Part shown: positions 10,405 through 49,409 of the stretch, piece after piece
Numbering within the stretch: position 1 is the first letter of the stretch
Layout of the letters: each line of letters begins with the position of its first letter
Assembly: GCA_964424195.1 (NCBI GenBank)
Contig: CAYRHT010000001.1
Location: 70,102-134,101, forward strand
DNA from: an uncultured Gammaproteobacteria bacterium
GTDB lineage: Bacteria; Patescibacteriota; Patescibacteriia; UBA1558; S5-K13
Direction: 5' to 3'
DNA length: 64,000 nt
Notes under the pieces: model-generated
The model's database searches: none
The model's input: the letters and a program-made list of their open reading frames with translations, nothing else
Told to the model about the DNA's origin: nothing
Made by a program: the position numbers and the translations under genes

Positions 10405-11469
10405 ATGAAAACAATAAATCCAAAAGAATTTTCAAAATCTAAGACAAACCTAGCTGGAGATCTTTTACGTAATAGTAAAACTTCAGAAGAAGAAAAATAT
10501 AAAGCTTTAACAGTTTTAAGTAATTGGCGAGCCTCTCATAGCTATCCAATGCATGTCTTTAAAAAAAGATTAAAACGAGTTTCCGAAAAGATAGATAAAA
10601 ATTCATTATCCGCTCAAAGATTAAAACGAGTCCCCTCAATCATTAAAAAGTTGAATAGGAGATATAAAAACAATAAAGCAACAATGAAGCTTACTCAAAT
10701 GCAGGATATAGCTGGTTGTAGAGTTATAATGTCTAATATCAAATTAGCACGTGAACTTTATGAAGAGTCTTATATTAAAGGAGATTTAAAACATAAAAAA
10801 GTAAATGAGAAAGATTATATTTCTAAGCCTAAAAATGACGGTTACAGAAGTATTCACTTAGTTTATAGGTATTTAAGTGATAAAGGAAAAAAAGAATATA
10901 ATGGATTATTAGTTGAAATACAAATTAGATCAAAATTACAACACATTTGGGCTACGGCAGTTGAAACGGTTGGTTTTTTTACAGGACAAGCAATAAAATC
11001 AAATGAAGGGGAAAAGGAATGGAATGATTTTTTTAAATTAGTAAGTTCAGCTTTTGCTAAAATGGAGAAATGTCCAATTATATTAGGAACGCCTGATGAT
11101 GAAAAAGAATTATATTCTCTTATAAAAGAAAAAGAAAGAGAATTAAATGTAATTACTAAAATGGAGAGTTGGACTGAATCCATGAAGTTTATTGATAATC
11201 TAAAAAATAAAAAAAATCATCATTTCTTTTTACTTGAATTAGATACTATTCAAGAAAAATTGACCATTTCTACATATTCAAAAAGGCAAGAAGAAAAAGC
11301 AATAAATGCTTATGCTAAAGCAGAAAAAAAAATTTACGGAAGAAAAGAGTATGATGTTGTTTTAGTTGGTGCAGATACTACATCAGACTTAAAAAAAGCA
11401 TATCCTAATTATTTTATGGATACTAAAGAATTTATTAATTATCTCAATAAGATTTTAAATAAATATTAA
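10405..11469 (+). CDS. RelA/SpoT-domain (alarmone synthetase fold) protein with an unknown C-terminal domain of about 160 aa
   Basis: Synthetase-domain motifs DIAGCRVI, GYRSIHLVY and EIQIRSKLQHIWA in the first ~190 aa. No HD hydrolase and no TGS/ACT domains. 354 aa. Confidence 0.75.
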   Translation: MKTINPKEFSKSKTNLAGDLLRNSKTSEEEKYKALTVLSNWRASHSYPMHVFKKRLKRVSEKIDKNSLSAQRLKRVPSIIKKLNRRYKNNKATMKLTQMQDIAGCRVIMSNIKLARELYEESYIKGDLKHKKVNEKDYISKPKNDGYRSIHLVYRYLSDKGKKEYNGLLVEIQIRSKLQHIWATAVETVGFFTGQAIKSNEGEKEWNDFFKLVSSAFAKMEKCPIILGTPDDEKELYSLIKEKERELNVITKMESWTESMKFIDNLKNKKNHHFFLLELDTIQEKLTISTYSKRQEEKAINAYAKAEKKIYGRKEYDVVLVGADTTSDLKKAYPNYFMDTKEFINYLNKILNKY

Positions 11470-23915: not shown

Positions 23916-24833
23916 ATGAAAAAATTTATATGTCAGGAAAATAAAATTAGGTTAGATAAATTTTTAGTTGAAAGACTAAAGAGTTTGTCGCGTTCTAAAA
24001 TTCAACACCTAATTGAAGATGGGCAAGTAAAAGTTAATTCAGAAATTGTTAATAAAAAACACCATTGGTTGGATGAGAAGGATAAAGTTGAGATATTACT
24101 TGCACCTTCGGGTCCCGTTGCTAAGAAAAAAGCCTCTTGTTTTAAAAAAGATATTAAAGTCGTCAAGAAAGCTAAAGATTATGTAGTTATAGAAAAGCCT
24201 TCTGGTTTGATTGTTCATGGAACTAAAGAAATTCACGAATATTCTCTAGCTGATTGGTTGATTAAAAAATATCCTCAGATTAAAAAAGTAGGAGATGATA
24301 TTGAATTCAGACCAGGCATAGTTCATCGTTTGGATAAGAAAGTTTCTGGTCTAATGGTTGTAGCTTTAAATCAAGAATCTTTTGAAAACTTAAAAGAACA
24401 GTTTAAAGACCGGAGTGTAACTAAAAAATATTTAGCTTTAGTTCATGATCAGATGGAAGAGTATGATGGAAAAGTAGATTTTCCAATTGAGCGTTCTAAG
24501 AGAAGTGGTAAAATGGTAGCTAAGCCAAAGCATTTTGATGAAAAAGAAGCTTTAACTCTTTGGGAGACTAAAGAAAAATTTGCTCATCATACTTTATTAG
24601 ATGTTCAAATTAAAACTGGAAGAAATCATCAGATTAGAGCCCATATGCAAGCTATTAATCATCCAGTTGTTGGTGATGATTTGTATAATATTAAAGGGAA
24701 TAAGGATAAATTTAATTTAAAAAGAGTTTTTTTACACGCTTATCGTTTAGAGTTTAGAGATTTGAATGGTGAATTACAAAAATTTGAAATAGATTTGCCA
24801 GAAGATTTAAAAAATGTAATTGAAGAACTATGA
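23916..24833 (+). CDS. RluA-family 23S rRNA pseudouridine synthase (RluD-like)
   Basis: N-terminal S4 domain (IRLDKFLVERL) and catalytic HRLDKKVSGLMVVA, 305 aa. Confidence 0.85.
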   Translation: MKKFICQENKIRLDKFLVERLKSLSRSKIQHLIEDGQVKVNSEIVNKKHHWLDEKDKVEILLAPSGPVAKKKASCFKKDIKVVKKAKDYVVIEKPSGLIVHGTKEIHEYSLADWLIKKYPQIKKVGDDIEFRPGIVHRLDKKVSGLMVVALNQESFENLKEQFKDRSVTKKYLALVHDQMEEYDGKVDFPIERSKRSGKMVAKPKHFDEKEALTLWETKEKFAHHTLLDVQIKTGRNHQIRAHMQAINHPVVGDDLYNIKGNKDKFNLKRVFLHAYRLEFRDLNGELQKFEIDLPEDLKNVIEEL

Positions 24834-25336
24834 AAAAAGAAATAAATAATTTAGTATTCATAGATGGTCAAAATTTATATATGGGAACTAATTCAGAAAA
24901 ACCAAAATGGGAAGTTGATCTTTTTAAATTTAGAGAGTATTTATTAAAGAAATATAAAGTTAAGGATGCTTATTATTTTTTAGGTTTTGTAAATGAGGAA
25001 AATAATGATTTATATGAAATGATCCAGAAAGCTGGTTTTGTTTTAAAGTTTAGAGAACATAATTCTGTTATGATTGGAAAGAAGAAGGGAAATGTAGATT
25101 CAGATATAATTTTTGATATAATGAAGAGGATTTACAAAAAAGAGGAGTTTGATAAGATTATTTTAGTTTCTGGTGATGGAGATTATAAAATGTTAGTAGA
25201 TTTTTTAATCGAAGAGGAAAAATTTGAAAAGATACTTTTTCCGAATAAACAATTCGCTTCTTCCCTTTATAAAGGACTTAAACCAGAATATTTTGATTAT
25301 TTGGTAAATATTAAAAGTAAGATTGAACGGAAATAA
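24830..25336 (+). CDS. NYN-domain (LabA-like) protein
   Basis: VFIDGQNLY...ILVSGDGDY acidic-residue pattern of the NYN/PIN-like fold. 4-nt ATGA overlap with the upstream gene. Confidence 0.7.
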   Translation: MKKEINNLVFIDGQNLYMGTNSEKPKWEVDLFKFREYLLKKYKVKDAYYFLGFVNEENNDLYEMIQKAGFVLKFREHNSVMIGKKKGNVDSDIIFDIMKRIYKKEEFDKIILVSGDGDYKMLVDFLIEEEKFEKILFPNKQFASSLYKGLKPEYFDYLVNIKSKIERK

Positions 25337-27772: not shown

Positions 27773-30700
27773 ATGGATTTAGCATATAATCATCAAGATA
27801 TAGAGCCGAAATGGCAAAAAAAATGGGAAGATTCTCATGTTTTTAGAGCTAATGATAAATCTAAAAAAGAAAAAAAATATGTTTTAGATATGTTTCCTTA
27901 TCCTTCTGGAGCTGGATTACATGTTGGTCATCCCGAAGGCTATACAGCTACTGATATTTATTCTCGTTATTTAAGAATGAAGGGCTATGAAGTAATTCAT
28001 CCTTTAGGATGGGATGCTTTTGGTTTGCCTGCTGAAAACTATGCAATTAAGATTGGAGTTCATCCTCAAAAGAGCACTCAAGAAAATATTGCTAATTTTA
28101 CTAAACAAATAAAGAGTTTAGGTTTTTCCTATGATTGGGAAAGAGAAATAAATACTTCTGATCCAAGTTACTACAAGTGGTCTCAATGGTTTTTCTTACT
28201 CTTATACAAAAATAACTTAGCCTATCAGAAAAAAGCCCCAGTTAATTGGTGTGAATCTTGTCAGACTGTTTTAGCCAATGAACAAGTAGTCGATGGAAAA
28301 TGTGAGCGTTGTCAGAGTGAAGTTATTCAAAAAGATTTAAAACAATGGTTTTTTAAGGTAACTGAATATGCTGATGAGTTAATTAATGGTTTAGATAAAT
28401 TAGAATGGTCTCATGCTTTGAAAACTATGCAAAAAAATTGGATTGGAAAGTCAGAAGGAGCTGAAATTGATTTTCAAATTAAATCTACAAAATTAAAAGT
28501 CACAGAGTTTAAGAAAATATATTTTGCAACAGGGAATAAATCTAAATTAAAAAGATTACAAAAATTATTTAAAAAAATTAACCCCAAAATTAAAATTGAA
28601 CAAGTTCCTGATTATGTGGATGTAGTAGAAGATGGAAAAGATGCTTGGGAAAATTCATTAAAGAAAGCAAAGCCTTATCAAGGAAAATATGATCTACCAG
28701 TTTTGTCTATGGACACTGCTGTTTTCTTTAGTAATGAAGATAAGGTTGATCCTTTAGCTCCTAAAAGGTCTTGTTTAGGGGGAGTTGATGAAAAAGATTT
28801 AAGCCAAGAAGAAATTGCAGAAAAAGCCTTAGAATTTTACAAAAGCATTGCTCAGAAAAATGGTGGAGAAAAAGAATTCTATTATGAAGATTTCTGGACA
28901 ATTTTGTATCCTAATGGAGAATATCAACAAAGTAAAAATAGGAGAGAATATATTTTAACTGATCAGGAAGCTGGTGATTTAGATATCTATTTCCCAATGA
29001 AAAATTTATATTATTCAAAAGTTAGCGGAAAGAGATTTTTTGAAAATACTAATGAAGATTATTTTAAAGAATTTGCATCTCAGATTAATGCTTTGAAAGA
29101 ATTGGTTTTAGCAAAGACTATTAAAGTTTTTACAACTCGACCAGATACTTTGTATGGAGCAACGTATATGGTTTTAGCTCCGGAACATAAATTAGTTCAA
29201 GATTTAAAGAGTCAAATTGAGAATTTTGATGAAGTAGAAAAATATATTGAAACTACTAAGAAAAAAAGTGACTTAGAAAGAACAGATTTGAATAAAAATA
29301 AGAGTGGAGTGGAATTAAAAGGTTTAAAAGCTATTAATCCAGTTAATAATCAAGAATTACCAGTATATATTTCTGATTATGTTTTAGCTAGCTATGGAAC
29401 GGGAGCAATTATGTGTGTGCCAGCTCATGATCAGCGAGATTTTGAATTTGCTCAGAAATTTAAGCTACCAATTATTGATGTAGTTAAATCTGAACGAAAA
29501 ACTAAAGTTTTAATTGTTCATGGATTTATGGCAAATAGTAAGAGTGATTGGTTTCCGTGGCTTAAAAAAGAATTAGAGCAAAAGAATTACGAAGTTGTAA
29601 CTCCTGATATGCCAAATACAGAGCATCCAATTCGAAAAGATTGGCTAAAGAGTTTGGAGACTATAATTAATGATTTTACAGAAAATGATATTGTTATTGG
29701 TCATAGTATGGGAGCTTTTGCAGCTCAATATTTAGCTCAAAAAACTAAAATTAATAAATTATTTTTGATTGCTCCGGTTTCTGAATTCATGGTTAATGAT
29801 GAAACTAGAGTAGAGAGTATTAAAAATACTTTTACAGAAGAACAGATAGAAATATTAAGAAAGTTTACAGATTATAAATTAGATTATCAGAGTATTAATG
29901 CCAATGTAGAGAAAATTTATGCTTATTTCTCAGACGATGATCCATATACCTCTACTAAACAGCAAGAACAATTAACAAAAAAATTACCAGGTAAATATAT
30001 GGTTTTGAATAAAAAAGGTCATATTAATGTTAGTGATAGTAGAACCAGTGTTTCAGAATTACCAGAAATTATTCCAGACATCGAAGAAAAGATTAGAGCT
30101 ACAGAAGCTAATGGTTTAATGGAGAATTCCGAAGAATTCAGTGGTATGGACTCTGAAAAAGCCAAGAAAAAAATTACTAAAAAAGCTGACGGTGAATTAA
30201 CTACTCAATACAAGATTAGAGACTGGTTAGTTTCTCGACAAAGATATTGGGGAGCTCCAATTCCAATTATTCATTGTTCTAAATGTGGTTCAATTCCGGT
30301 TCCAGAAAAAGACTTACCAGTTCTTTTACCTAATGATGTAAAAGATTTTAGACCAACTGGACAACCACCACTAGCTTCATCCAAAGAATTTAATAAAAAT
30401 GTAAAATGCCCTAAATGTGGAGCTAATGCTACTCGAGAACATGATACTATGGATGGTTTTGTGGATAATTCTTGGTACTATTATCGTTATTTAGATCCTA
30501 AAAATGAAAAGGAATTTTGTTCTAAGAAATTAATTAAAGAATGGATGCCTGTAGAAACCTATGTAGGTGGAACTGAACATGCTGTTGGTCATTTAATCTA
30601 TTCTAGATTTTTTACTAAAGTTTTAAGGGATAATGGTTACTTAAAATTTGATGAACCATTTTTAAAATTAATTAATCAAGGATTAATTTTAGGAACTGAT

Positions 30701-31378
30701 GGACAAAAGATGAGTAAGAGTTTAGGAAATGTGGTAAATCCTGATGAAGTAGTTAAAGAATATGGAGCTGATAGTTTTAGAATGTATGAAATGTTTATGG
30801 GTCCTTTAGAAGATTCTAAACCTTGGAATACGGATGGCATTAAAGGTTTAAGAAGGTTTTTAGACAAGAATTGGAATTATTTTTCAAATATTAGTTATGG
30901 AGAAGACTCTAATAATCAAGTAAATTCAAGTTTGCATAAAACTATTAAAAAAGTTAGTGAAGATATTCAAAACTTTAGATTTAATACAGCTATTAGTTCT
31001 CTAATGGTTTGTTTTAAAGAGGTTAATTCTTTAACCAATCCTCGGCCGGAGTTAATAAATCCATATTTAATTATGCTTTCTACTCTAGCTCCTCATATTG
31101 GAGAGGAGATTTGGAGTAAGTTAGGAAATAAAGGGTTTATTTGTCAGCAAGAATGGCCTCAGTATGACGAGAAGTTAATTGTTGAAGATAAAATAAATTT
31201 ACCAATTCAAATCAATGGAAAATTACGAGCTACTCTAGAAATAGAAGTAGATATTTCTGAAGATGCTTTGAAAAAACAGATTTTAGAATTAGAAAATTTA
31301 AATAAATATATTGAAGGTAAGGAAATTATTAAATTTATTTATATTAAGAATAAAATTGTTAATATTGTTATAAAATAA
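27773..31378 (+). CDS. leuS: Leucyl-tRNA synthetase with two inserted enzyme-like domains
   Basis: HVGH (HIGH) motif, TTRPDT, HDQRDFEFA, RDWLVSRQRYWGAPIP, KMSKS (QKMSKSLGN). At 1201 aa it is about 350 aa longer than bacterial LeuRS. Confidence 0.93.
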   Translation: MDLAYNHQDIEPKWQKKWEDSHVFRANDKSKKEKKYVLDMFPYPSGAGLHVGHPEGYTATDIYSRYLRMKGYEVIHPLGWDAFGLPAENYAIKIGVHPQKSTQENIANFTKQIKSLGFSYDWEREINTSDPSYYKWSQWFFLLLYKNNLAYQKKAPVNWCESCQTVLANEQVVDGKCERCQSEVIQKDLKQWFFKVTEYADELINGLDKLEWSHALKTMQKNWIGKSEGAEIDFQIKSTKLKVTEFKKIYFATGNKSKLKRLQKLFKKINPKIKIEQVPDYVDVVEDGKDAWENSLKKAKPYQGKYDLPVLSMDTAVFFSNEDKVDPLAPKRSCLGGVDEKDLSQEEIAEKALEFYKSIAQKNGGEKEFYYEDFWTILYPNGEYQQSKNRREYILTDQEAGDLDIYFPMKNLYYSKVSGKRFFENTNEDYFKEFASQINALKELVLAKTIKVFTTRPDTLYGATYMVLAPEHKLVQDLKSQIENFDEVEKYIETTKKKSDLERTDLNKNKSGVELKGLKAINPVNNQELPVYISDYVLASYGTGAIMCVPAHDQRDFEFAQKFKLPIIDVVKSERKTKVLIVHGFMANSKSDWFPWLKKELEQKNYEVVTPDMPNTEHPIRKDWLKSLETIINDFTENDIVIGHSMGAFAAQYLAQKTKINKLFLIAPVSEFMVNDETRVESIKNTFTEEQIEILRKFTDYKLDYQSINANVEKIYAYFSDDDPYTSTKQQEQLTKKLPGKYMVLNKKGHINVSDSRTSVSELPEIIPDIEEKIRATEANGLMENSEEFSGMDSEKAKKKITKKADGELTTQYKIRDWLVSRQRYWGAPIPIIHCSKCGSIPVPEKDLPVLLPNDVKDFRPTGQPPLASSKEFNKNVKCPKCGANATREHDTMDGFVDNSWYYYRYLDPKNEKEFCSKKLIKEWMPVETYVGGTEHAVGHLIYSRFFTKVLRDNGYLKFDEPFLKLINQGLILGTDGQKMSKSLGNVVNPDEVVKEYGADSFRMYEMFMGPLEDSKPWNTDGIKGLRRFLDKNWNYFSNISYGEDSNNQVNSSLHKTIKKVSEDIQNFRFNTAISSLMVCFKEVNSLTNPRPELINPYLIMLSTLAPHIGEEIWSKLGNKGFICQQEWPQYDEKLIVEDKINLPIQINGKLRATLEIEVDISEDALKKQILELENLNKYIEGKEIIKFIYIKNKIVNIVIK
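28478..29119 (+). other. LeuRS insertion 1 (about aa 236-449) with a Ham1/RdgB-like ATGNxxK motif
   Basis: KKIYFATGNKSKLKRLQKLF...DLPVLSMDTAVFF lies between the LeuRS blocks SEGAEIDF and KVFTTRPDT. It resembles the N-terminus of non-canonical NTP pyrophosphatases. This assignment is tentative. Confidence 0.4.
29495..30067 (+). other. LeuRS insertion 2 (about aa 575-765): YdeN/RBBP9-type alpha/beta serine hydrolase domain
   Basis: KVLIVHGFMANSKSDWFPWLKKELE...IVIGHSMGA (GxSxG nucleophile elbow) lies between HDQRDFEFAQKFKLPIIDVV and YKIRDWLVSRQRYWG. Confidence 0.6.
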
Positions 31379-34345: not shown

Positions 34346-37300
34346 ATGACTCTAGCTAAAAACAAAAAGATATTTATTATTACATTTTTAATAGTTTTTT
34401 TATTTACAGCTAGTATTGGGGGTCTTACTTCTAAAAATGTTAAAGCTCAATTATTGCCAATGCCAGTTATAGATTGGACACCAGCAAAAGTAATAGTGGC
34501 AGATATTCCAGCAGAAACTCATTGGTGGGCAGATGTTGTTAGTTGGATCAAAGAAAAGAGTTTTACTAAAATTATAGCAAATGCTTTTAGTAGGACTTTT
34601 CAAAGGTATATGGAAACTTTGGCATATAATAGTGCTAGTTTTTTAGCAGGAGGTATTGAGGGTGGAAAAAGTGCTTGGAGTACTGATAATTGGAATTCAT
34701 ATATGGTGGATGCTAGGGATGCTGCTACAGCTGAATTTTTGGATTCTTTAGCTAGTGGTTATGATTTTGATATTTGTAAACCACCTGGTGGAATTAATAT
34801 CCAAAATAAAGTTAATTTGATTATATCAACTAATGAGGATAAAAGAGAACCAAGATGTTCTTTGAATGATATAAAAAAGAAATGGGGAGATTTAGGAGAG
34901 AAGCTTCAAAATGATCCTTTGACTTTAATGAAAATAAATAATCAATCTTTGAAAGAATTGGGTTTTGATAAGTTTACTTCTGGTTCAATGCCAACTCTTG
35001 ATGATTTTAATGAAGTTAGAGCTAAACTTTTACAAAGCAGTATTAATATCAAAGAATCAGATTTAGGATATATTCAAGAGGTTGAAAATGAACTTGCCCG
35101 ACAACAACAATTAAAAGAAGAAATGGCGGAAAAGGAAAGAATTAATCCAGACGGTTCAAAACCGAAGAGAAATCCAATAACCGGAGATGTAATTGTTCCA
35201 GCAGAGGTTGCTAAAGGTGACTTAGGAACAGTATGGAATACTTCTAAAGAATCAGCAGCGACTTTAAGTGATGATCCTGTAGTTAATATAGCAAATATAT
35301 TTTTAAATACCTTAGTAAGTAAAAGTTTAAGAGGCTTAATAAATAGATTATTTATTCCAAAGCCTCCTCAATATGATGAAGTTACTGAAGACAGAGGTTT
35401 AATATCTAATTTTAATAGAGAAGTTAATATTGTTGAAAAGACCTTTGCTCAAATTAAAAAGATTTCTTATAACATCAACTTGACTGATATAGATGTGATT
35501 GCTGAAATGGAAATGGATTTAGGTAATGATCTTCCTGGAATAATGAATAATAAGACTATTAGTTCTGATTTTGCTGAAGCTTTAAGAAAAGCTCAAGCTG
35601 GAGAAGTTCTTACTTTAAAAGAAGCTATTGAAGAAAATCTAGTAGATCAGAATAAATGGTTTGGATATATTGATGTAGCTAGTCAAAATCCTAAGCAACC
35701 TAGTGTAGTTGAAGGATTTTCGGCTGATAATATTAAAAAATTAGTTAAGAATAGGGTTGTTTCTGTGGGTTGGCTTTTTGCAGCTGAAAAAATAAAAGAA
35801 CTTAAGGGACAAATAATTAGAGGTTGTAGTTCCCAAGGATGTACCTTAGAAAATGTTTTAGAAGAATATGATAAATCTGGAACTTATAATGTTCTTGAGA
35901 ATGAAGGAGAAGACCCTCAAATTTATAAAAATGAATATTGTGGTTGGCGATCAATTAATGCTGAACCATATTTTATAGATATTAATAATGCTAATGATTG
36001 TGAATTAAATGAAGCTGGTCAGTTTAATGGAATTAGTGGTATAGAATTGAAATGGTCAGGGGCTAGTGATTCTATTTCTGGTAAATGTTACAGATATGAA
36101 GATCTTAATGGCGATAGTATTATTGATGAGATTAGTTTAGAGGCTGAAAATCGAGAAACTTGTGAAACTCTTGAGCCATCATTTGAACCAGAAGTTAATG
36201 GTTTAGGTGGATATTATTATTACGAATGGGAACCAGGTGGATGTCTAATTAAAGAATTAGACGAATCACCTTTATGTCATTTAGTTGATCCAAATACTGT
36301 TTTGAAAGCTCCGGCTCAACAATGTGGAGCAGAAGGTTATTATAGTATCCTAGAAACTAGAAATACTGGTAGTCGTCAGGAAGATTGTGCTGATGTTAAA
36401 CATTGTATTGAAGAAGATGATGATGGAAGATGTGTTGGTGGTTATGATTATTGTGTTAAAGAAGAAAACATTTGGCGTTTTAATGGCGATTCTTGTAGCA
36501 AGCAATTTAATTCTTGTACTACTTTAATTGATGATCAAGGACAACGAGAATCTTACTTAATAGATACTTTAAGAGATTGTCCTCAAGAAGAAGTGGGCTG
36601 TCGGGACTATATTTTTGAAAAAGAACTTATAGATGATCAATATGTTTGGGATAATGATGCTCCAAAAGCTTATTTCAATTCTTCAGTAGAAGAATGTAAT
36701 GACAATGCTTTAGGATGTAATGAATTTATCCAGATTAAACCGGGAGTTAATTTAATAGCTAACGGCAGTTTTGAAATTAATGAGGGACCAGAAGATGAGA
36801 AACCAGATTTTTGGAATTTAAATAATGGGAGGTTTAGTTTAGAAAGAGATGCTTATTTAGGAAACTATTCTTTAAAACATATTGGCGGAAATGAAGATTT
36901 ATTATCAAAAGAAAATCTTTTAATTCCTGATAAAGGTTTATACACTTTAAGTTATTATGTTCGAGCTGAAGATTCAGATGTTCAAGTAAAACCTAAGCTT
37001 TTAGTTGCTAACCAAAATGGTGTAACTATCCCATTGTCTAATGAAGATGCTATATTTAATCCTGGAGAAGTAATTAATAATTGGCAAAGAGTTTCTGGAC
37101 ATTTTTCAATTCCAGAAAATCAAAATGTTATTAGTGTTGATTTAATATTTCAAATTAAAGGTGATGTTTATTTAGACGGTGTTCAATTAGAATTGAATGA
37201 GCTGGTAGATAGTGATCTTAATGAAGGAGAAGGAGATACAACTACTTATCAAGAATATGGACAAGTATCTCAAGCTTATTTTAAAAAAGCTCCAGATTAT

Positions 37301-40300
37301 TTAAATTGTGAAGACTATAGTTTAGATTCATATAATTGTGATCAAGAATATCATCCTTGTTGTGACTATGTAAAATATTGTCCAGTTGAAGATTTATCTT
37401 GTTCAGCCTTTTATCCAATAAATGGAGATCCTTTTGTACCGGCTGTGATTAATAATGAGGATCAGTGTGTAGCAGAGTGTAATAATTATCAAACCTTTAG
37501 TGCTTTACCAAGTTATTTTGATAATCTAGAAGCCTTAGAAGAAAGTGGAGAGGAAGCTATTCCTAATGATAGTAATTTTATTGCTGAAAGTGCTGAAGAT
37601 TGTTCAGAACCATCTTGTGAATTATTTACAAATATTGATAAGTTAGAATTAGGTGCAGAGGCTAAAGAATATTACAGTGCTGTTCGTCAGTGTGTTAAAC
37701 CAGATGATTCAGGAGTAAGTAAAGAATTATACTATACTTGGGAAGGATCTGATACTTCTGCTTTCCAATTAAAAACTTGGGAATTATTAGCTAGTGATGA
37801 TGAAGATCATTTAAATGGTGAGGGTGGAAAGGCTCCTTGTACTAATGTATTAATTGGTAATACAAGTTGTTTAGATGATGTTAATAATGTAGAAGAATGT
37901 AATCCAGAAACTAATTTAGACTGTCGAACTTTCTATGATGAAGATGCTCTTCCCCATAACCGTTTACTTTCTAAAACTATTCCAATTACTGAAGAATGTA
38001 TAAATGTTCGAAGAGAAATTTCTAATCAAGTTTACAAAATAATTCCTTCAATGAGTAATGCTTGTGATGTATCTAATTTAGGATGTACTACTTATCAAGG
38101 AAATGATAGTAATAATGTTCGGAATATATTTAGAGAAGATTTTGAAAGTGGTTCTACTGCTGGTTGGATGGCTGATATAGATGGTGGAGGTAGTAGTATT
38201 AATTTAGTACATTCTTCAGAAGCTATTCATTATAATGGTAGTTCAATGAAAGTTTGGGTAGGAGATGATTCAGAAGCAATTTGGATTTCATATAATTTAA
38301 CTGAAGCTGGGGAAGTAGTTTTTCCAGGTAAACAATATTCTTTAAGTTTTTGGGCTAAATCTTTTGGAGATAATACTTCTGGTTTTTATCCAGCTCAAAA
38401 TTATGATGGTCTTGAGAATACTGGAGGCGTACTTTCTTTAAATTCTTTGTTATATAACAAAGCTCAAGCTAGTGATGACGATGCTTCATTAATTTTTGAT
38501 AATAATCTTTCAGTAATTAATCGAGAGTGGTTATTATACAACTATAATGTAACTGATTTTAAAACTGACCAAAATGGTGATGTTGTTTTGAGTTTTAAGA
38601 TTAATATTGATAATAGTATTTATGAATATGATGGTATTTATATCGACAACATTATCCTTAAAGCTTTGACTAGTAGTTTTGATAAGATTAAAGATTCTTG
38701 GCAAACTCCAAGAGTTTGTTTAGATAATGATTATTTAGGATGTCAGGCTTATCAAGATCCAAGTAATAATATCTCTTATCTATATCAATTTACTGATTTA
38801 TGTCCAGAAGAAAATATTGGTTGTCAGGCGATGATTGATACTCAAAATTCAAGTATGCCGGGACAACAAACCTTTAATGCCTATTGTTCAGAAGGTAGTT
38901 CAGAAGAAGAATGTAATTTAGGAAATTATTATTACCAGAATGATTCTAATGTTCCTGATGATAATATATTTGATAGTACAGTTATTGTTCCTAGTGATGA
39001 TTTAGTTTACATTGTGGCTGATAATGATCATAGTTGTTTATCTGGTAATAAAGGTTGTCAGGAGATGTCAATTATTGATAATGAGGGTGTTAATCAAGCT
39101 ATTAATATAGTAAGTAATCCAGATCATTATGTAGCTCATGATATGTATGGTGAAAATAATAATATTTTATGTTTAGATGAATATCAAAATTGTGTTTCCT
39201 TTAGTAACTTAGAGGGTTCTAAATTACATAAAATACATCCTCGAAATTTAACTTGTGAATATCAAGAGGAAGATACAGAGAGAAATATTCCAGCTGGTTT
39301 TTACAATCAAGATGGAGAAAATTGTGCTGGTTTAATTTATAGTAAAGCTTATGATGATTTTACCTTTAATATTGTAGAACAATGGAAACCTTATGATGAT
39401 TATCAAAATCAATATGCTGGAGTTTGTCCAACAGAAGAAAATTCTTGTTCAGGATTTATAGACCCTCTAGATAATTTAGATTTTAGTGATTATGTTTATT
39501 CTCATTTAGGAATTAATTTAAATTATAATCATCCTAGTGAATGGCGTCAGGCTTCTTGGTCTAAGGACAACGCTGTGATTGATAATTTTGGTCCCGAAGG
39601 AATTAGTTATCATCCGGCAAGTAATGAAGATGATTATGAGGGTCTTAATATAATTCTTAGCGGGGATCAAAACCTATTAATCTATCGAGGGCCAGATTAT
39701 ACAGATAATATTTTTAATTTTAATGTAGCAGCAGACACTACTTATCGTTTAAGTGCCCGAGTTAAACTAGAAGATGCTGATTCAGTAATGACTTTCTTAA
39801 GTTGTAAACCTAATTCTAGTAGTTCTCAGGATTCCTTTGAGGGTTATTTTGTAAATGAGGATTGGTATGAGGGTGAAAATAATATTCCTTATGCTTTCCC
39901 AGCTATTAAATCAAATTATTCAACTACAAATAATGATCAATGGCAATATATCTATGGTTTATATGAGATTTTACCGGGAGCTCAGTATTGTAATATGGCT
40001 TTCTATATCAATGGAGAATCTGGATCTAAGTTTACCATTGCTGATATGAATTTGGAGAAAGTAAGTGGAGATTATTATTACTTAGATAATGATTATCTTG
40101 ATTATGATTCTTGTAATTCAGCTAACTTAAAAGAGGGCTGTGTATTATTCCATGATATATCAGAAACAGAATTAAAATGGAATCATCAAGTAAGTTATGA
40201 AGAAAATAGATTAGCCCCAGGAGATTCTAGAAATCCTAGCGATGTTAATGCTTTATTAAAAGTAACTCGAGATAAGCAGTGTGCTGAATGGTTGACTTGT

Positions 40301-43300
40301 GGAGCTAGTTTAAAAACTATTGACCAAGCTAGTGGTCAAACTAAAGAGGCTTGTGTTTCTTTGATTGCTTGTGATGAATTATCAGAGGATAAGGCAGGAG
40401 TTTGTACTCATCCTTTCTTTAATGGAGCAACAGCTCAACCATTAACTTTAGATTACTATCATCAAATGAGAGGAAAGTCTGAATGGTCAGATTTAGATTA
40501 TAGTGGTTATTCAATTCCAGGACTATATCCTCTTGATTCTTTAACTCCTTTAGAAGTTGTTAATGATACTGGCACTAGTACAGTATTAGGACATTTAGTT
40601 CTTAAACAAAATAGTTTAGGACAGCCATTTGTATATAAATTAGGGGTAGGAGTAGACAATTATTTAACAAATATTTATACAGAAGATGTTTCTGGTTCAG
40701 AAGAAATAGGTATTAATTTGGGATCTAATTTAATAGATGGAGAAGGTTTTGCAGATAAAGCTTGTCGTTTGTATCCAGAAGTAAATTCTCCTTTCCCTCA
40801 AATACAATTTAGTAAGATTGCTCGAGGAGAATTCTCAGATAGTGATAGTATGTCTTCTGAAGCTCCTTATCTAGATATTCGAGATAAAGCGGCTAATTTT
40901 GCTAATGCTAATATTTGTCAGACTGGTAGTGGTTCTGCTTTAGAAGACGAAGAATATCCTTTTGCTCAAGGTACAGACTGTGAATGTCATTATACTAAGG
41001 CTACTTATGGTTCTGAAACTTTATACTTCCCTTATGACTATGATAATCATATTCCAGATTCAATAGAAATAGATTATGGTAGCGGGGGTAGTACTTTATC
41101 AATTAAAAATAAGACTAAATATTTAGGATGGAAAGGATTTTGTTTAGACAAAGAACAATCTTTGTTTATAAATAACACTGAATCTTTGACAGAAGATATG
41201 AAAGATTACCGATGTTTAACTTGGTATCCCATTGATTTATTAAGTGGAGAAATTGATGCTTATGGTGCTAGTGAAGAGGCAGAAGTTTCTTATAATAAAG
41301 TTGGTGATAATGATAAATTATGTGTAGTAGGGGAAGATTATGTAACTACTGAGGATCGAGTCTATTGTGGAAGAGTTGAACTAGGTTATTGTAATGTTTT
41401 ATTATATATCCCAGAAGGATCTAAAGTTAATCCAGATAAAGTTGCTCAATATACTAGCGAGGTGCTTAATTATGATAATGAAGGTAATCAAGTGGGAATG
41501 TTAGATACAGGGTGGTTACCAGCTAATAAATTTGAATATCATGATGGTACAGTTCCTTATTGCGAAGGATCTTCTTGTGTTGGTAATCCTGTAATATTTT
41601 CATCAATAGCTGCCAATAGATTAGAAGCAACTCCTGGAGTTCCTAATAATGGAAAATTTCCAGCAGCAGATTTTGGAATATTAATGTCTGATTGTAGTTT
41701 TATTGGTGGAACATGTACTAGTATAGATGGTACTTCTAGTGATGTATTTGCTGGACAATATGTATTTAATGAGTTATTTGATCCTCCTGTTGATTCAGAA
41801 ATAAAATATTTTTTCCTTGATGAAGGAGTAAATAAAGATGGTGATAAAAATATTAATACTCATACAAGCGGTTCTAGTAAATATCAAACTGGAAGTAAAA
41901 TAGTTCTCGAGGGTTATTCACGACCTTCTGATAGAGACTGTGAAGATGGTTTAGCTGCTACTGAAAGTTTGGCCCAGAAATATGCCGCAGGCAGTACTAC
42001 TTGGTGCAGAAGTCAAGGAAAACATCTTGTTGATTGGAAATGTCACAGTGAAGGATGGTGTAGTTGGGCAAATAGATGGGATGCTTGTAAGGTTTGGTGT
42101 AATCCTTTGGAATTTAATTATTATGTTTATGCTGATCCAGTAGCAAATGATATTTGTACTAATACAGATTGTTCAGGGAATGATAAGGGATTACAGTGTT
42201 TAGAAACTAAAAATGATATTTATGTTAATTTAGCTAGTTATGTTGATGAAGATTTAGATTTTGATATTACGGAATGTAAGATACAAGAAGTTAACGATTT
42301 TGACTGTGATTTTGTACAATGTGTTCAAAGCCAAAATAATTCTCCATATTATTGTGAACAATATAATGATTGTTTGATTTATAATTATAATGCAGGTGAA
42401 GACTTTACAGATGAAAATGAGAATGGAATGTGGGATGAAGGTGATGGAACATTTATGGATCCAAGTGAACCTTTGGTAGACACTGGTTATGATACGGTTG
42501 ATGGTGAGGGTAATCCAATAACAGTAGGTGCTGACAATGAAATATGGGATGGACCAATTATTATATCGAATGATTTGTATTATGAAGCTTATGGTGAAGC
42601 TAATGATGATGGTGACATAGTTCAAGAGTCATGTCTTAATTCTGAAATAGAGGTTAATTGTACTTCAGATAATGGTTATGATACAGGTAGTGAAGGTACT
42701 GACTGTGGAGATGATTGTATTAAGACATGTAAAACTTATGTAGATTTAGATAATGTTGTGTATAATTCAAATAATTTTTATTTGAATCGGTTAGATTTAG
42801 ATAAACTTGGTGATGATGTTTGTATTGTTAATGGAGAATCTATTTGTGCTAAAACCTTATCTGGTAATGTTAATGAATATAACGAGCAAAGAGCAATTAG
42901 ATTTGATGAAATTTATGAACTTTCTGGAATAGATGGAGCAGAATGGTCAACAGTTAATTCTCCTTTTTCAGCTAATTCTGTAGAAGATTTTCAGCCGTTG
43001 GATTTAAGAAATTTAATTAATGTTGTAGATAGATCATTTACTAGTAATGATATTTTTAATGATTATTATTCTGATTTAAATGCTTCCCCAGCAGAAGATT
43101 TAGGAGATGCTAAGTATAGATTAGAAAATGTAGTTATTGAAATACCAAATAATAATTTTCAACAATATGATGCCAATGTAAAAAATTGGTCGCGCCCAGA
43201 GGATTGGTCTGGTAATTATTGGAAGATAGCTAAGAGTTCTGAGTCAGAAATTAGACAAACTAATTATGATGAAAATAATGGATTCTCTGAAGGAGATTCA

Positions 43301-43915
43301 GGAATAAGTGTTAATAGTACTCATAATCAACATATTATTAAAGAAGATGGTAATTTATATGCTTATTTAATGTTCTATGCTTACACTTCTCCAGGTGCTA
43401 CTCCTATTCAAGAAATTAGTATTGATTGGACTGGAGTAAATGTTGATAAATTGGTATTAAGAGGTCCTTTTAAGAATCATAAACAAGATTGTGTTCGAAA
43501 ATGTGGAGTGGTTTATGGTGAAGATTATGATGCTATTGAGAATTATGAAGCTATTAATTGGGATTCAGAAGACAATAATTGTGTTGTTAATTCAGATTGT
43601 AGTCCCTATGATGATGAGAATGAGAGATATTGTTTCTCTAAGACCTGGGGAGATCATCCAGATGCTTGTATTGAAGATAATCAGGATCAATCTCAAGATG
43701 GTTATTTCTCTTACAGCTTTATATACGCTTGTGATGCTTTGAATGATTATTGGAAAGAAGATTGTACTGGTTATGATGCTAATATTCAAGGTGGTTGCTG
43801 TGTTTATACTCCAACAGTTACTATTACTGATAATTGGGGAAAGCAAAAGACAGAAAATCTAGGTGATTGTAATAATGGTGATAATATTTGTTCAGTAATT
43901 GTAATTCCTAAATAA
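34346..43915 (+). CDS. Giant (3189 aa) secreted cysteine-rich multidomain protein; candidate adhesin or surface apparatus
   Basis: Signal peptide. Very high Cys content with CxxC/CxC spacings. Three CenC/CBM4_9-like jelly-roll modules (NGSFEINEG... around 36761-37200; REDFESGSTAGW... around 38131-38650; a third around 39590-40060). No internal stop across 9.5 kb. Confidence 0.6.
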   Translation: MTLAKNKKIFIITFLIVFLFTASIGGLTSKNVKAQLLPMPVIDWTPAKVIVADIPAETHWWADVVSWIKEKSFTKIIANAFSRTFQRYMETLAYNSASFLAGGIEGGKSAWSTDNWNSYMVDARDAATAEFLDSLASGYDFDICKPPGGINIQNKVNLIISTNEDKREPRCSLNDIKKKWGDLGEKLQNDPLTLMKINNQSLKELGFDKFTSGSMPTLDDFNEVRAKLLQSSINIKESDLGYIQEVENELARQQQLKEEMAEKERINPDGSKPKRNPITGDVIVPAEVAKGDLGTVWNTSKESAATLSDDPVVNIANIFLNTLVSKSLRGLINRLFIPKPPQYDEVTEDRGLISNFNREVNIVEKTFAQIKKISYNINLTDIDVIAEMEMDLGNDLPGIMNNKTISSDFAEALRKAQAGEVLTLKEAIEENLVDQNKWFGYIDVASQNPKQPSVVEGFSADNIKKLVKNRVVSVGWLFAAEKIKELKGQIIRGCSSQGCTLENVLEEYDKSGTYNVLENEGEDPQIYKNEYCGWRSINAEPYFIDINNANDCELNEAGQFNGISGIELKWSGASDSISGKCYRYEDLNGDSIIDEISLEAENRETCETLEPSFEPEVNGLGGYYYYEWEPGGCLIKELDESPLCHLVDPNTVLKAPAQQCGAEGYYSILETRNTGSRQEDCADVKHCIEEDDDGRCVGGYDYCVKEENIWRFNGDSCSKQFNSCTTLIDDQGQRESYLIDTLRDCPQEEVGCRDYIFEKELIDDQYVWDNDAPKAYFNSSVEECNDNALGCNEFIQIKPGVNLIANGSFEINEGPEDEKPDFWNLNNGRFSLERDAYLGNYSLKHIGGNEDLLSKENLLIPDKGLYTLSYYVRAEDSDVQVKPKLLVANQNGVTIPLSNEDAIFNPGEVINNWQRVSGHFSIPENQNVISVDLIFQIKGDVYLDGVQLELNELVDSDLNEGEGDTTTYQEYGQVSQAYFKKAPDYLNCEDYSLDSYNCDQEYHPCCDYVKYCPVEDLSCSAFYPINGDPFVPAVINNEDQCVAECNNYQTFSALPSYFDNLEALEESGEEAIPNDSNFIAESAEDCSEPSCELFTNIDKLELGAEAKEYYSAVRQCVKPDDSGVSKELYYTWEGSDTSAFQLKTWELLASDDEDHLNGEGGKAPCTNVLIGNTSCLDDVNNVEECNPETNLDCRTFYDEDALPHNRLLSKTIPITEECINVRREISNQVYKIIPSMSNACDVSNLGCTTYQGNDSNNVRNIFREDFESGSTAGWMADIDGGGSSINLVHSSEAIHYNGSSMKVWVGDDSEAIWISYNLTEAGEVVFPGKQYSLSFWAKSFGDNTSGFYPAQNYDGLENTGGVLSLNSLLYNKAQASDDDASLIFDNNLSVINREWLLYNYNVTDFKTDQNGDVVLSFKINIDNSIYEYDGIYIDNIILKALTSSFDKIKDSWQTPRVCLDNDYLGCQAYQDPSNNISYLYQFTDLCPEENIGCQAMIDTQNSSMPGQQTFNAYCSEGSSEEECNLGNYYYQNDSNVPDDNIFDSTVIVPSDDLVYIVADNDHSCLSGNKGCQEMSIIDNEGVNQAINIVSNPDHYVAHDMYGENNNILCLDEYQNCVSFSNLEGSKLHKIHPRNLTCEYQEEDTERNIPAGFYNQDGENCAGLIYSKAYDDFTFNIVEQWKPYDDYQNQYAGVCPTEENSCSGFIDPLDNLDFSDYVYSHLGINLNYNHPSEWRQASWSKDNAVIDNFGPEGISYHPASNEDDYEGLNIILSGDQNLLIYRGPDYTDNIFNFNVAADTTYRLSARVKLEDADSVMTFLSCKPNSSSSQDSFEGYFVNEDWYEGENNIPYAFPAIKSNYSTTNNDQWQYIYGLYEILPGAQYCNMAFYINGESGSKFTIADMNLEKVSGDYYYLDNDYLDYDSCNSANLKEGCVLFHDISETELKWNHQVSYEENRLAPGDSRNPSDVNALLKVTRDKQCAEWLTCGASLKTIDQASGQTKEACVSLIACDELSEDKAGVCTHPFFNGATAQPLTLDYYHQMRGKSEWSDLDYSGYSIPGLYPLDSLTPLEVVNDTGTSTVLGHLVLKQNSLGQPFVYKLGVGVDNYLTNIYTEDVSGSEEIGINLGSNLIDGEGFADKACRLYPEVNSPFPQIQFSKIARGEFSDSDSMSSEAPYLDIRDKAANFANANICQTGSGSALEDEEYPFAQGTDCECHYTKATYGSETLYFPYDYDNHIPDSIEIDYGSGGSTLSIKNKTKYLGWKGFCLDKEQSLFINNTESLTEDMKDYRCLTWYPIDLLSGEIDAYGASEEAEVSYNKVGDNDKLCVVGEDYVTTEDRVYCGRVELGYCNVLLYIPEGSKVNPDKVAQYTSEVLNYDNEGNQVGMLDTGWLPANKFEYHDGTVPYCEGSSCVGNPVIFSSIAANRLEATPGVPNNGKFPAADFGILMSDCSFIGGTCTSIDGTSSDVFAGQYVFNELFDPPVDSEIKYFFLDEGVNKDGDKNINTHTSGSSKYQTGSKIVLEGYSRPSDRDCEDGLAATESLAQKYAAGSTTWCRSQGKHLVDWKCHSEGWCSWANRWDACKVWCNPLEFNYYVYADPVANDICTNTDCSGNDKGLQCLETKNDIYVNLASYVDEDLDFDITECKIQEVNDFDCDFVQCVQSQNNSPYYCEQYNDCLIYNYNAGEDFTDENENGMWDEGDGTFMDPSEPLVDTGYDTVDGEGNPITVGADNEIWDGPIIISNDLYYEAYGEANDDGDIVQESCLNSEIEVNCTSDNGYDTGSEGTDCGDDCIKTCKTYVDLDNVVYNSNNFYLNRLDLDKLGDDVCIVNGESICAKTLSGNVNEYNEQRAIRFDEIYELSGIDGAEWSTVNSPFSANSVEDFQPLDLRNLINVVDRSFTSNDIFNDYYSDLNASPAEDLGDAKYRLENVVIEIPNNNFQQYDANVKNWSRPEDWSGNYWKIAKSSESEIRQTNYDENNGFSEGDSGISVNSTHNQHIIKEDGNLYAYLMFYAYTSPGATPIQEISIDWTGVNVDKLVLRGPFKNHKQDCVRKCGVVYGEDYDAIENYEAINWDSEDNNCVVNSDCSPYDDENERYCFSKTWGDHPDACIEDNQDQSQDGYFSYSFIYACDALNDYWKEDCTGYDANIQGGCCVYTPTVTITDNWGKQKTENLGDCNNGDNICSVIVIPK

Positions 43916-48344: not shown

Positions 48345-49409
48345 ATGTTAAAAAATATCAATTTTGATCAGAGATTGCAAAATATTCCTGATAAAATTTG
48401 GTCTATTATAGTGCAAATCGATCAATTACAAGGACAGTGGATTGCAGGGGCAAAATTGAGCTCCCAAGTTTTAGGTCGTCTCAAACGATCTGTTTTAATT
48501 ACTTCTACTGGTGCCTCTACTCGTATTGAGGGGTCGAGACTTTCAGATGAAGATATTGAAAAAATGATGAAAGGTATTGATATTCAAAAATTTATAGACA
48601 GAGATAAACAAGAGGTTCAGGGTTATTACGAATTACTAGAGAATGTTTTTAATTCTTGGAGAACACTTCGTTTTAATGAAAGTATTATTAAGCACTTTCA
48701 TAATGAATTGCTTAAATATGTGGATAAAGATCAGGAACATAAAGGTAAATACAAGAAACAGGAGAATAAAGTTCATATGATTAATGAGGCTGGTGAATCA
48801 GTGGGTATATTATTTGATACTACTCCTGCTTATCTTACTCCTAAAGAAATGATGGAATTAATCGAGTGGACTGATAAAACTTTAGAAGAAAGAAAATATC
48901 ATCCACTTTTAATTGTTGCTAATTTTATTGTTGAATTTTTGAAAATTCATCCATTCCAAGATGGTAATGGTCGTGTTTCTCGTGTCTTAACGAATCTTTT
49001 ATTACTTAAAGAGGGCTATGAATATATGCCCTATGTGTCTCATGAAAAATTAGTAGAAGATAATAAGCCAGATTATTATATTGCATTACGTAAGAGTCAA
49101 AAAACAATCGGCTCTAAAAAAGAAGATATTATTTTATGGCTTGAGTTTTTTTTCACTGTTTTTTTAAAGCAATCTCAGATGGCGGTCGATTTGCTTTCAA
49201 AAGAAAATGTGGAAAAGCTTCTAACTCCTAAGCAAATGGCAGTTTGGCAGTATTTGCAGGAAAGTGATAAAATAACTACTCCTATGGAAATTGCTCAAAA
49301 AACTAAAGTTGCTCAGCCAACTGTTAGACAGGCTTTGGATAAATTGATGCGACTTAAAAAAATTGAACGAATTGGTCAAGGACGTAGTACTGGTTACAGA
49401 ACATTTTAA
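48345..49409 (+). CDS. Fic-family protein (AMPylator-type) with C-terminal wHTH
   Basis: Canonical Fic motif HPFQDGNGRVSR. A C-terminal winged-helix-like segment. Confidence 0.85.
   Translation: MLKNINFDQRLQNIPDKIWSIIVQIDQLQGQWIAGAKLSSQVLGRLKRSVLITSTGASTRIEGSRLSDEDIEKMMKGIDIQKFIDRDKQEVQGYYELLENVFNSWRTLRFNESIIKHFHNELLKYVDKDQEHKGKYKKQENKVHMINEAGESVGILFDTTPAYLTPKEMMELIEWTDKTLEERKYHPLLIVANFIVEFLKIHPFQDGNGRVSRVLTNLLLLKEGYEYMPYVSHEKLVEDNKPDYYIALRKSQKTIGSKKEDIILWLEFFFTVFLKQSQMAVDLLSKENVEKLLTPKQMAVWQYLQESDKITTPMEIAQKTKVAQPTVRQALDKLMRLKKIERIGQGRSTGYRTF

Follow-up and report, generated by a model that had tools for sequence, protein, structure and literature searches.

Aminoacyl-tRNA synthetases (aaRSs) are among the most conserved proteins, and their gain of new domains tends to be seen as a feature of eukaryotes. 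The insertion of a domain into a synthetase is itself a known kind of event: CP1 and the INS domain of ProRS are ancient nested editing domains, eukaryotic aaRSs carry appended domains, and an IleRS with a GNAT domain is recorded in NCBIfam (NF040702). We know of no solved structure of a leucyl-tRNA synthetase (LeuRS) that contains anything at the two loops considered here. In the present work we analysed leuS, the LeuRS gene located on a 64,000-nucleotide stretch of contig CAYRHT010000001.1 (hereafter the window), the product of which carries two additional domains, designated insert A and insert B, inside its CP1 editing domain. The identity of the gene is secure: its motifs and domain content indicate a genuine, functional LeuRS with two nested hydrolase domains, encoded at a single-copy locus of a bacterium of the Patescibacteria (candidate phyla radiation, CPR). 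Whole enzymes are thereby placed inside the mobile proofreading domain of a bacterial LeuRS with no catalytic motif disturbed. The phenomenon is lineage-wide and cassette-like; this LeuRS exemplifies it, as does the ValRS encoded in the same window.

Two enzyme domains nested in the CP1 domain of LeuRS

The open reading frame (ORF) of leuS is uninterrupted over 1,201 codons, and its product reached 1005.2 bits against the NCBIfam equivalog TIGR00396 (leuS_bact, cut-off 548.4), the match being split into three stretches because of the inserts. All LeuRS landmark blocks, which the original prediction had reported as present and in order, were located at the expected succession of positions: HVGH (residues 50-53), SEGAEIDF (227-234), TTRPDT (454-459), GTGAIM (542-547), HDQRD (552-556), YKIRDWLVSRQRYWG (813-827) and KMSKS (979-983), with the GHSMG of insert B (643-647) standing between HDQRD and YKIRDWLVSRQRYWG. 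Pfam assigned the class I catalytic, LeuRS editing (CP1, PF13603, 201.8 bits) and anticodon-binding domains together with the foreign PF06821 (residues 579-755) and PF01725 (residues 249-319), and the LeuRS of T. thermophilus (1H3N) matched the protein with 743 bits. The part of the protein that follows insert B comprises the RDWLVSRQRYWG motif, a CxxC...CxxC zinc module (site C, empty in this protein), KMSKS, the anticodon-binding domain and the C-terminal tRNA-binding domain. HVGH is kept in 120 of 121 LeuRS homologs, and HVGH, TTRPDT, GTGAIM, HDxRD and KMSKS are kept in essentially all 121 sequences, insert-bearing or insert-free alike. With HIGH, KMSKS and all editing motifs retained, the enzyme presumably charges and proofreads tRNA-Leu normally. 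The AlphaFold2 (AF2) model of the full-length protein has a predicted local distance difference test score (pLDDT) of 90.2 and a predicted template modelling score (pTM) of 0.73, its confidence dropping only at the known flexible CP1 loop and at a loop close to the end of insert B. The LeuRS core of the model superimposes on solved bacterial LeuRS structures (4AQ7, 5OMW, 2BTE) with target-normalised template modelling (TM) scores of 0.77-0.84, and the best superposition was obtained with the E. coli LeuRS in aminoacylation conformation.

Alignment to 1H3N mapped both insertion points inside the CP1 editing domain (Table 1). Insert A falls exactly between residues 242 and 243 of the T. thermophilus (Tt) enzyme, in a hairpin directly ahead of the T-rich TTRPDT editing motif (site A), and insert B takes the place of a short loop, Tt 364-372, downstream of HDxRD...PI..V (site B). 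The lengths given at first, about 214 residues between SEGAEIDF and KVFTTRPDT and about 190 residues after IIDVV, were corrected accordingly: the former interval holds 216 residues with a net insert of 207, and the latter extends over 241 residues up to YKIRDW, of which about 200 belong to the insert and about 40 to the native C-terminal part of CP1.

In searches with hidden Markov models (HMMs), excised insert A matched the Ham1p_like profile PF01725 with 35.2 bits (cut-off 22.5, E = 1.5e-8) and excised insert B matched the Ser_hydrolase profile PF06821 with 76.4 bits (cut-off 22, E = 3e-21, profile positions 1-158 of 172). Both exceed the curated Pfam cut-offs, so that a lack of similarity to hydrolase families can be dismissed. 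The match of insert A is limited to profile positions 1-71 of 186; the original prediction therefore recognised the Ham1 family correctly and took the segment for the N-terminal half of such a domain. The latter part of the claim did not stand. An AF2 model of insert A, built from 18 embedded and free-standing relatives, has a pLDDT of 92.6 and a pTM of 0.86 and aligns with 4BNQ, 1VP2, 1K7K and 2CAR along the full length of these structures (about 205 columns, TM 0.68-0.78). A Foldseek search with this model retrieved 27 Ham1/RdgB/ITPA chains with E values between 5e-11 (4BNQ) and 3e-7 and TM scores of 0.6-0.78; the next-best matches were Maf proteins, with all else far behind.

Profile alignment to human ITPA, the sequence of which is identical to 2CAR, placed the invariant residues N255, K258, E286, K298 and D314 of insert A (18 of 18 sequences) on ITPA N16, K19, E44, K56 and D72, which constitute the phosphate- and metal (Mg2+)-binding set. 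No SHR-like motif was visible in the C-terminal half of insert A, where the profile alignment to ITPA fails past approximately residue 80; residue-level mapping of this half onto ITPA was abandoned as unreliable. Residues R90, E98, Y114, R149, P166 and L170 (insert numbering) form a family-specific conserved set. Insert A scored far below the RdgB/Ham1 equivalog cut-offs (27.8 versus 145.35 bits for TIGR00042 and 32.3 versus 234 bits for NF011397), and is therefore assigned to a divergent subfamily of the superfamily and not to the RdgB equivalogs. An exhaustive search with the profile of the insert A family yielded 41 clusters at E < 1e-30, which constitute a subfamily of its own, and 454 clusters at E < 1e-10. 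As modelled, insert A is a complete but divergent ITPase-like superfamily member. It is probably still a pyrophosphohydrolase, with a substrate different from that of the canonical members: as the phosphate- and metal-binding residues are kept, it most likely turns a nucleoside triphosphate (NTP)-like substrate into a nucleoside monophosphate (NMP) and pyrophosphate (PPi), and as no canonical purine-specificity motif is recognisable, this substrate is probably other than inosine or xanthosine triphosphate (ITP/XTP).

The proposed YdeN/RBBP9-type nature of insert B was confirmed by its matches to solved structures, namely YdeN of B. subtilis (1UXO, E = 3e-13) and human RBBP9 (2QS9, E = 5e-12), in addition to the PF06821 score. 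The putative triad Ser645-Asp723-His750, in which Ser645 is the nucleophile within the GHSMG elbow, aligned with S75, D138 and H165 of RBBP9. Across the LeuRS-embedded copies, the serine and the histidine are present in 51 of 51 and the aspartate in 49 of 51, the other two having Glu; likewise, H583 and G584 of the oxyanion motif are conserved in 51 and 49 of the 51 copies, respectively. Insert B is 30-36% identical to its closest free-standing forms. RBBP9 is an aminopeptidase that acts on aminoacyl-X bonds and needs a free alpha-amine (PMC8866121). The alpha-amine anchor of RBBP9, Glu108, aligns to a Glu in the protein studied here, within a stretch that varies among other embedded copies or is missing from them. 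Taken on its conserved residues, insert B is a YdeN/RBBP9-type Ser-Asp-His hydrolase predicted to cleave a small ester or amide.

No fewer than 24 contigs (41 index blocks) encode the exact 1,201-residue protein; they come from JGI, ENA, NCBI and Logan assemblies, and many measure about 950 kb. Eleven orthologs, with identities of 67-81%, carry both inserts. An assembly chimera or a frameshift was ruled out on the basis of the exact protein in independent assemblies and of the architecture common to orthologs. At the same locus, other genomes encode an insert-free LeuRS of 797 residues (P0019, the closest insert-free form) or a LeuRS of 990 residues with insert B only (P0012). The gene order M23/LysM peptidase, leuS, MFS, KsgA, TSP3 protein and giant protein is common to these two loci and the window; the genes are therefore positional orthologs, and the inserts originated at this very locus. 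Fusion with a neighbouring gene was ruled out, as the insert-free and one-insert orthologs keep the same neighbours and have no free-standing module nearby. An intein or another splicing element was likewise ruled out, since neither the protein nor the excised inserts gave an intein, Hint or LAGLIDADG match at E <= 1; the same tool gave clear intein matches for the topoisomerase P0263 described below.

The GC content at third codon positions (GC3) is 0.17-0.18 in the inserts and 0.15-0.19 in the core, and the overall GC content is similarly uniform, so that recent acquisition of foreign DNA is unsupported. At the four insert junctions no meaningful direct or inverted repeats were detected, only AT-rich chance matches of low complexity, and custom HMMs run on the six-frame translation found no second copies of the modules in the window. 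In PADLOC-DB there was no match for insert A, insert B or the phosphatase of ValRS (see below) at E <= 0.01, and PHROGs returned nothing for insert A and a generic esterase match alone for insert B. Ratios of nonsynonymous to synonymous substitution rates (dN/dS), calculated by the Nei-Gojobori method against two orthologs with the same insert allele compared, were 0.145 for insert A and 0.099 for insert B, with 0.113 and 0.095 for the core. For shared alleles, purifying selection constrains the inserts no less than the essential core. That an essential enzyme has genuinely acquired domains in frame, as first proposed, is upheld by the continuous frame, the recurrence in many assemblies and in eleven orthologs, the conserved synteny, the catalytic residues and the core-like dN/dS.

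Guest families and cassette-like exchange in Patescibacteria

When the 120 best LeuRS homologs, all of them Patescibacteria-like, were aligned to an insert-free reference, three insertion hot-spots emerged: site A before TTRPDT, site B after HDxRD, and site C in the zinc module right after RQRYWG..IP. Clustering of the 106 inserts of at least 40 residues revealed that the PF06821 hydrolase family occupies all three (24 at site A, 24 at site B and 6 at site C, one protein having two copies), that the NUDIX family (23) occurs at site B only, and that the Ham1-like family (19) occurs, among the clustered inserts, at site A only. An IS200-like Y1 transposase domain (PF01797, E = 4e-17) lies in-frame at site A in P0044, P0045 and P0057; an ANT(2'')-like nucleotidyltransferase (PF10706) sits at site B of P0083, where its 23.7 bits exceed the cut-off, and gave a weak match at site A of P0038. 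P0045, P0053 and P0073 have in common an unclassified site B module of about 110 residues, and several further modules are unclassified. Counted over sites A, B and C, the guests represent at least six families (hydrolase, NUDIX, Ham1-like, HAD, nucleotidyltransferase-like and Y1 transposase), and one LeuRS of 1,610 residues combines a Ham1-like and a HAD domain with two NUDIX domains. A fourth position in LeuRS is represented by P0267 (1,021 residues), in which a Ham1-like domain lies at residues 734-936, inside or after the anticodon-binding domain and directly ahead of the C-terminal tRNA-binding domain of LeuRS. In P0123 (302 residues, on a 2.1-kb contig), probably a fragment of such a gene, the Ham1-like domain likewise directly precedes the tRNA-binding domain.

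In species-representative genomes, LeuRS matches from outside the CPR were uniformly about 2,400 nt long, and the long versions were found in Patescibacteria metagenome-assembled genomes. Inserts were carried by 61% of the LeuRS matches, which is an overestimate because the ranking favours proteins that share the inserts of the query. Among the 62 matches listed without an insert homologous to those of the query, 46 were insert-free, 10 (about 16%) had NUDIX as their sole insert and 6 had Y1-transposase or unclassified inserts. The architectures are distributed patchily over the core tree, with insert-bearing and insert-free proteins appearing as sister tips.

Among members of the clade to which the query belongs (core identity 75-88%), each insert occurs in discrete groups of alleles, the pattern of which matches neither that of the core nor that of the other insert. 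Compared with P0002, the identity is 86% in the core, 84% in insert A and 56% in insert B, and compared with P0004 it is 88%, 37% and 86%, respectively; in comparisons of mismatched alleles dN is elevated 4-9-fold. The insert A allele of P0004, P0010 and P0011 is far from that of the query although their host genes are sisters. A rough tree of the Ham1-like family has free-standing and embedded copies intermingled. At least three lineages can be distinguished among the hydrolase inserts; two of them span more than one site, and one is closest to free-standing proteins. At a small number of permissive loops, the modules come, go and replace one another as cassettes.

Free-standing homologs are abundant for both modules, the Ham1-like proteins having about 205 residues (up to 63% identity to insert A) and the PF06821 proteins about 190. 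The closest free-standing relative of insert A (P0121, 63% identity, L001 5162-5770, NCBI GCA_030640395.1) has archaeal neighbours, namely ribosomal protein S17e, tRNA-intron endonuclease and TrmB, and this gene context therefore suggests exchange with DPANN or DPANN-like archaea. A gene for a HIT-family hydrolase was observed within about 5 kb of the free-standing Ham1-like gene in both L001 and L003.

Hosts other than LeuRS were also revealed. Besides its presence at LeuRS site A and two further LeuRS positions, the Ham1-like module lies nested in topoisomerase I, in AlaRS, in a class II tRNA-synt_2b synthetase and in a thioredoxin-reductase-like enzyme. End-to-end fusions join it to RNase PH, to NUDIX, to a DNA-alkylation-repair enzyme and to a kinase. 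The topoisomerase I P0263 (1,621 residues, ENA, 271-kb contig) contains NUDIX (residues 286-402) and Ham1-like (residues 441-641) domains between its Toprim and Topoisom_bac segments, along with a true intein with a LAGLIDADG domain (residues 942-1369); the guest toolkit is therefore not confined to synthetases. In the class II AlaRS P0330 (1,287 residues), a guanylate kinase, a Ham1-like domain and a PF06821 hydrolase are arranged in tandem at residues 534-1112, and the class II tRNA-synt_2b synthetase P0358 (682 residues) has a Ham1-like domain at residues 126-323. The module pair of the query was also found outside any synthetase: P0251 (413 residues) is a stand-alone protein composed of a Ham1-like domain (residues 19-221) and a Ser_hydrolase domain (residues 232-396), a pairing which hints that both enzymes act in one pathway.

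In the ValRS of the window, the nested histidine phosphatase (residues 437-600, nt 4206-4697) matched PF00300 with E = 2.9e-37 and, when excised, with 132.8 bits, and it displays the RHG and CHG motifs. It directly follows WCISRQIWFGHRIPVWY, a position equivalent to site C of LeuRS. The excised phosphatase also matches the phage family phrog_12933, the function of which is not known, with E = 1e-29.

The remaining mid-size genes of the window have ordinary architectures. Downstream of leuS lies a giant ORF of 3,189 residues, syntenic in L007 and L008, for which the precomputed Pfam record contains a faint CBM_4_9 only and which is probably a CPR surface or adhesion protein; the ORF of 969 residues that follows it had no Pfam match. 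A small RelA/SpoT-domain protein, a Fic/DOC protein and an NYN-domain nuclease are single-domain proteins that may have roles in nucleotide signalling, or toxin-type roles, in this very small genome.

Table 1. Coordinates of leuS, its segments and other genes in the window (aa, residues of the encoded protein; Tt, T. thermophilus LeuRS)
Feature	Position	Strand	Basis or remark
leuS (bacterial-type LeuRS with two nested enzyme domains)	27773..31378	+	single 1,201-aa ORF; TIGR00396
LeuRS N-terminal catalytic part (aa 1-242: HVGH, ZN-1 region, first CP1 beta-strand SEGAEIDF)	27773..28498	+	aligned to Tt 4-242
Insert A (aa 243-449), divergent complete Ham1/ITPase-fold domain as modelled, site A	28499..29119	+	PF01725, AF2/Foldseek
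Native CP1 editing core (aa 450-572: TTRPDT, GTGAIM, HDQRD)	29120..29488	+	aligned to Tt 243-363
Insert B (aa 573-772), predicted YdeN/RBBP9-type alpha/beta serine hydrolase, site B	29489..30088	+	PF06821, 1UXO/2QS9 matches
LeuRS remainder (aa 773-1201), CP1 C-terminal end to C-terminal tRNA-binding domain	30089..31378	+	aligned to Tt 373-877
valS, 1,029-aa ValRS with nested His_Phos_1 histidine phosphatase	2916..6005	-	PF00300 between two PF00133 stretches
Giant ORF	34346..43915	+	
ORF after the giant ORF	43922..46831	+	
Small RelA/SpoT-domain protein	10405..11469	+	
Fic/DOC protein	48345..49409	+	
NYN-domain nuclease	24830..25336	+	

Function of the nested modules

From these data we infer the chemistry of the modules and their relation to LeuRS, and on balance we find it somewhat more probable than not that each module acts like its free-standing relatives, with LeuRS as a means of expression and a scaffold. 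The two CP1 surface loops would each host a whole, independently folding and predictedly competent small enzyme, one releasing NMP and PPi from an NTP-like substrate that differs from ITP/XTP and the other cleaving a small ester or amide by its Ser-Asp-His triad. The LeuRS host would give the modules constitutive expression and a stable scaffold, and the modules would take no part in leucylation or editing. Both belong to a recurring toolkit of small house-cleaning or nucleotide-handling enzymes (Ham1-like, NUDIX, YdeN-type hydrolase, HAD, histidine phosphatase and guanylate kinase) that Patescibacteria possess both free-standing and nested within large housekeeping proteins. Autonomy is favoured because the same guests sit in hosts without aminoacyl chemistry, because the insertion position varies, because the LeuRS editing apparatus is unchanged and because close orthologs manage without the inserts. 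Of the functions suggested in the original prediction, moonlighting modules and a nucleotide-sanitising activity fit best, as the modules are nested in unrelated hosts and abundant as free-standing proteins; a trans-editing or deacylase activity, likewise suggested there, has less support.

Several points weigh against autonomous modules. Synthetases, and LeuRS above all, predominate among the hosts seen, which is in part a sampling bias because all searches for nested hosts started from LeuRS-embedded copies. LeuRS acquired the PF06821 hydrolase in no fewer than three separate lineages and carries it at three different sites, a pattern that has the look of selection for a link with this synthetase specifically. 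The sole characterised member of the family, RBBP9, requires a free alpha-amine for its cleavage of aminoacyl-X bonds (PMC8866121), a reaction chemically close to aminoacyl-ester hydrolysis. In addition, scaffolding and expression alone explain neither the preference for loop insertion over terminal fusion nor the fast turnover of alleles.

The same points can be read as a coupling of the modules to aminoacylation chemistry, the main rival explanation, which in our judgement is possible but rather unlikely. The hydrolase would then add a further site of deacylation or proofreading, acting on aminoacyl-adenylate or on mischarged or N-blocked aminoacyl-tRNA, and the Ham1-like (or NUDIX) modules would destroy nucleotide by-products or mimics that the synthetase makes or binds, such as diadenosine tetraphosphate (Ap4A), non-cognate adenylates or antibiotics that mimic aminoacyl-adenylates (agrocin 84, microcin C). 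Apart from the chemistry of RBBP9 and the recurrent, independent capture of its family by LeuRS, a capture also made by AlaRS, such coupling would account for the location of both inserts inside the CP1 editing domain and for the nature of the hosts, four of the six nested-host types found being aaRSs and three of these having editing domains. The IleRS with a GNAT domain (NF040702) offers a precedent for the fusion of a synthetase with an enzyme, and fast allele turnover would suit an antibiotic arms race. However, the Ham1-like and NUDIX modules are also present in topoisomerase I and in the thioredoxin-reductase-like enzyme, hosts without aminoacyl chemistry, and the design of the search inflates the enrichment of LeuRS hosts. 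The position is not fixed either (sites A, B and C and the fourth near the anticodon-binding domain), and precise geometry relative to the LeuRS active site therefore seems not to be required. Furthermore, the editing motifs are alike in insert-bearing and insert-free orthologs, so that nothing is being replaced, and same-locus orthologs at about 70% identity carry no insert.

A broader form of coupling would make the inserts part of a previously unrecognised enzyme-in-enzyme cassette system of Patescibacteria. Small hydrolases from a common pool would be recombined into fixed loops of synthetases and other essential proteins, and their function would be tied to that of the host. YdeN-type modules may in this case represent a second, exchangeable proofreading or detoxifying site for aminoacyl esters or mimics of aminoacyl-adenylates, Ham1-like and NUDIX modules may clear nucleotides derived from or targeting the synthetase, and the allele turnover may stem from an arms race, within episymbiotic communities, over antibiotics or the fidelity of translation. 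We consider this system distinctly unlikely.

Highly unlikely, in our estimate, are semi-selfish or conflict-driven cassettes, that is, intein-like mobile elements at the domain level or defence and counter-defence modules which spread horizontally and render no service to the host. Such elements would be expected to be patchy among close relatives and to be swapped as discrete alleles independently at sites A and B, as was observed. The archaeal-context free-standing copy is nearer to insert A than many embedded bacterial copies are, the Y1 transposase and ANT(2'')-like nucleotidyltransferase domains occupy the same LeuRS sites in other lineages, and the topoisomerase host also bears a true intein. 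Against this stand the hydrolase and Ham1 modules themselves, which have neither mobility machinery nor intein motifs, no flanking direct repeats and no compositional shift, and in which strong purifying selection acts on catalytic residues unrelated to mobility; in addition, neither LeuRS module of the window matches any PADLOC defence model. The probability of an artefact or of decay (chimera, frameshift or gene fusion, inert spacer remnants) is negligible, given the continuous frame, the exact protein in independent assemblies, the eleven orthologs with both inserts, the confident modelling of both inserts as folded domains, the kept catalytic residues and a dN/dS of 0.10-0.15.

Significance and comparison with known systems

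Proteins of this kind have been public since 2016 under the names "leucine--tRNA ligase" or "hypothetical protein" (e.g., UniProt A0A1G2FBJ3 of Candidatus Portnoybacteria). Annotated merely as leucine--tRNA ligase, they leave the embedded enzymes invisible to metabolic reconstructions of the CPR, and house-cleaning functions may be wrongly scored as absent in these genomes. Our literature search, which left most subscription journals outside its reach, found no description of enzymes nested in the synthetases of the CPR; a review of the phylum from 2026 mentions rRNA introns only and has nothing on nested enzymes. The nesting of swappable small enzymes in large housekeeping proteins is thus apparently a widespread and undescribed habit of Patescibacteria. 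Four aspects appear to be new: whole unrelated enzymes within CP1, multiple guest families and sites, cassette exchange among close relatives, and a toolkit common to hosts that are not synthetases. If the guests are autonomous, they would exemplify a striking genome economy in ultra-small cells and provide a natural map of permissive insertion sites for synthetase engineering; if they are coupled to the host, they would add a new layer of translational quality control or of antibiotic resistance.

With canonical bacterial LeuRS (1H3N/2BYT/2BTE; 4AQ7/4ARC) the protein shares its motifs, domain order and the bacterial-type placement of CP1, and it differs in being about 400 residues longer and in having CP1 broken by two whole enzyme domains. 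Insert B resembles YdeN (1UXO) and RBBP9 (2QS9/7OEX) as a lid-less alpha/beta hydrolase of about 190 residues with an HG oxyanion motif, GxSxG and an aligned triad, but it is nested in another enzyme and not free-standing. Insert A has in common with Ham1/RdgB/ITPA (PF01725) the whole fold, as modelled, and the N, K, E, K, D set, but it lacks recognisable C-terminal SHR/Phe specificity motifs and has its own conserved set instead. Like inteins, the inserts are in-frame and patchily distributed in essential housekeeping proteins. Unlike inteins, they have no splicing or homing-endonuclease motifs and lie in variable surface loops, not in conserved active-site motifs; as they keep the catalytic residues of hydrolases, they presumably stay in the mature protein. 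In synthetases with acquired domains (CP1, ProRS INS, IleRS-GNAT NF040702) a translation enzyme similarly hosts an extra domain, and CP1 itself demonstrates the tolerance of class Ia enzymes to nesting. In contrast to those cases, the guests described here are unrelated, complete small-molecule hydrolases, as predicted from their conserved residues, nested in the already-nested CP1, and in Patescibacteria they belong to several families at several sites, are frequently gained, lost and swapped, and reside in hosts other than aaRSs as well.

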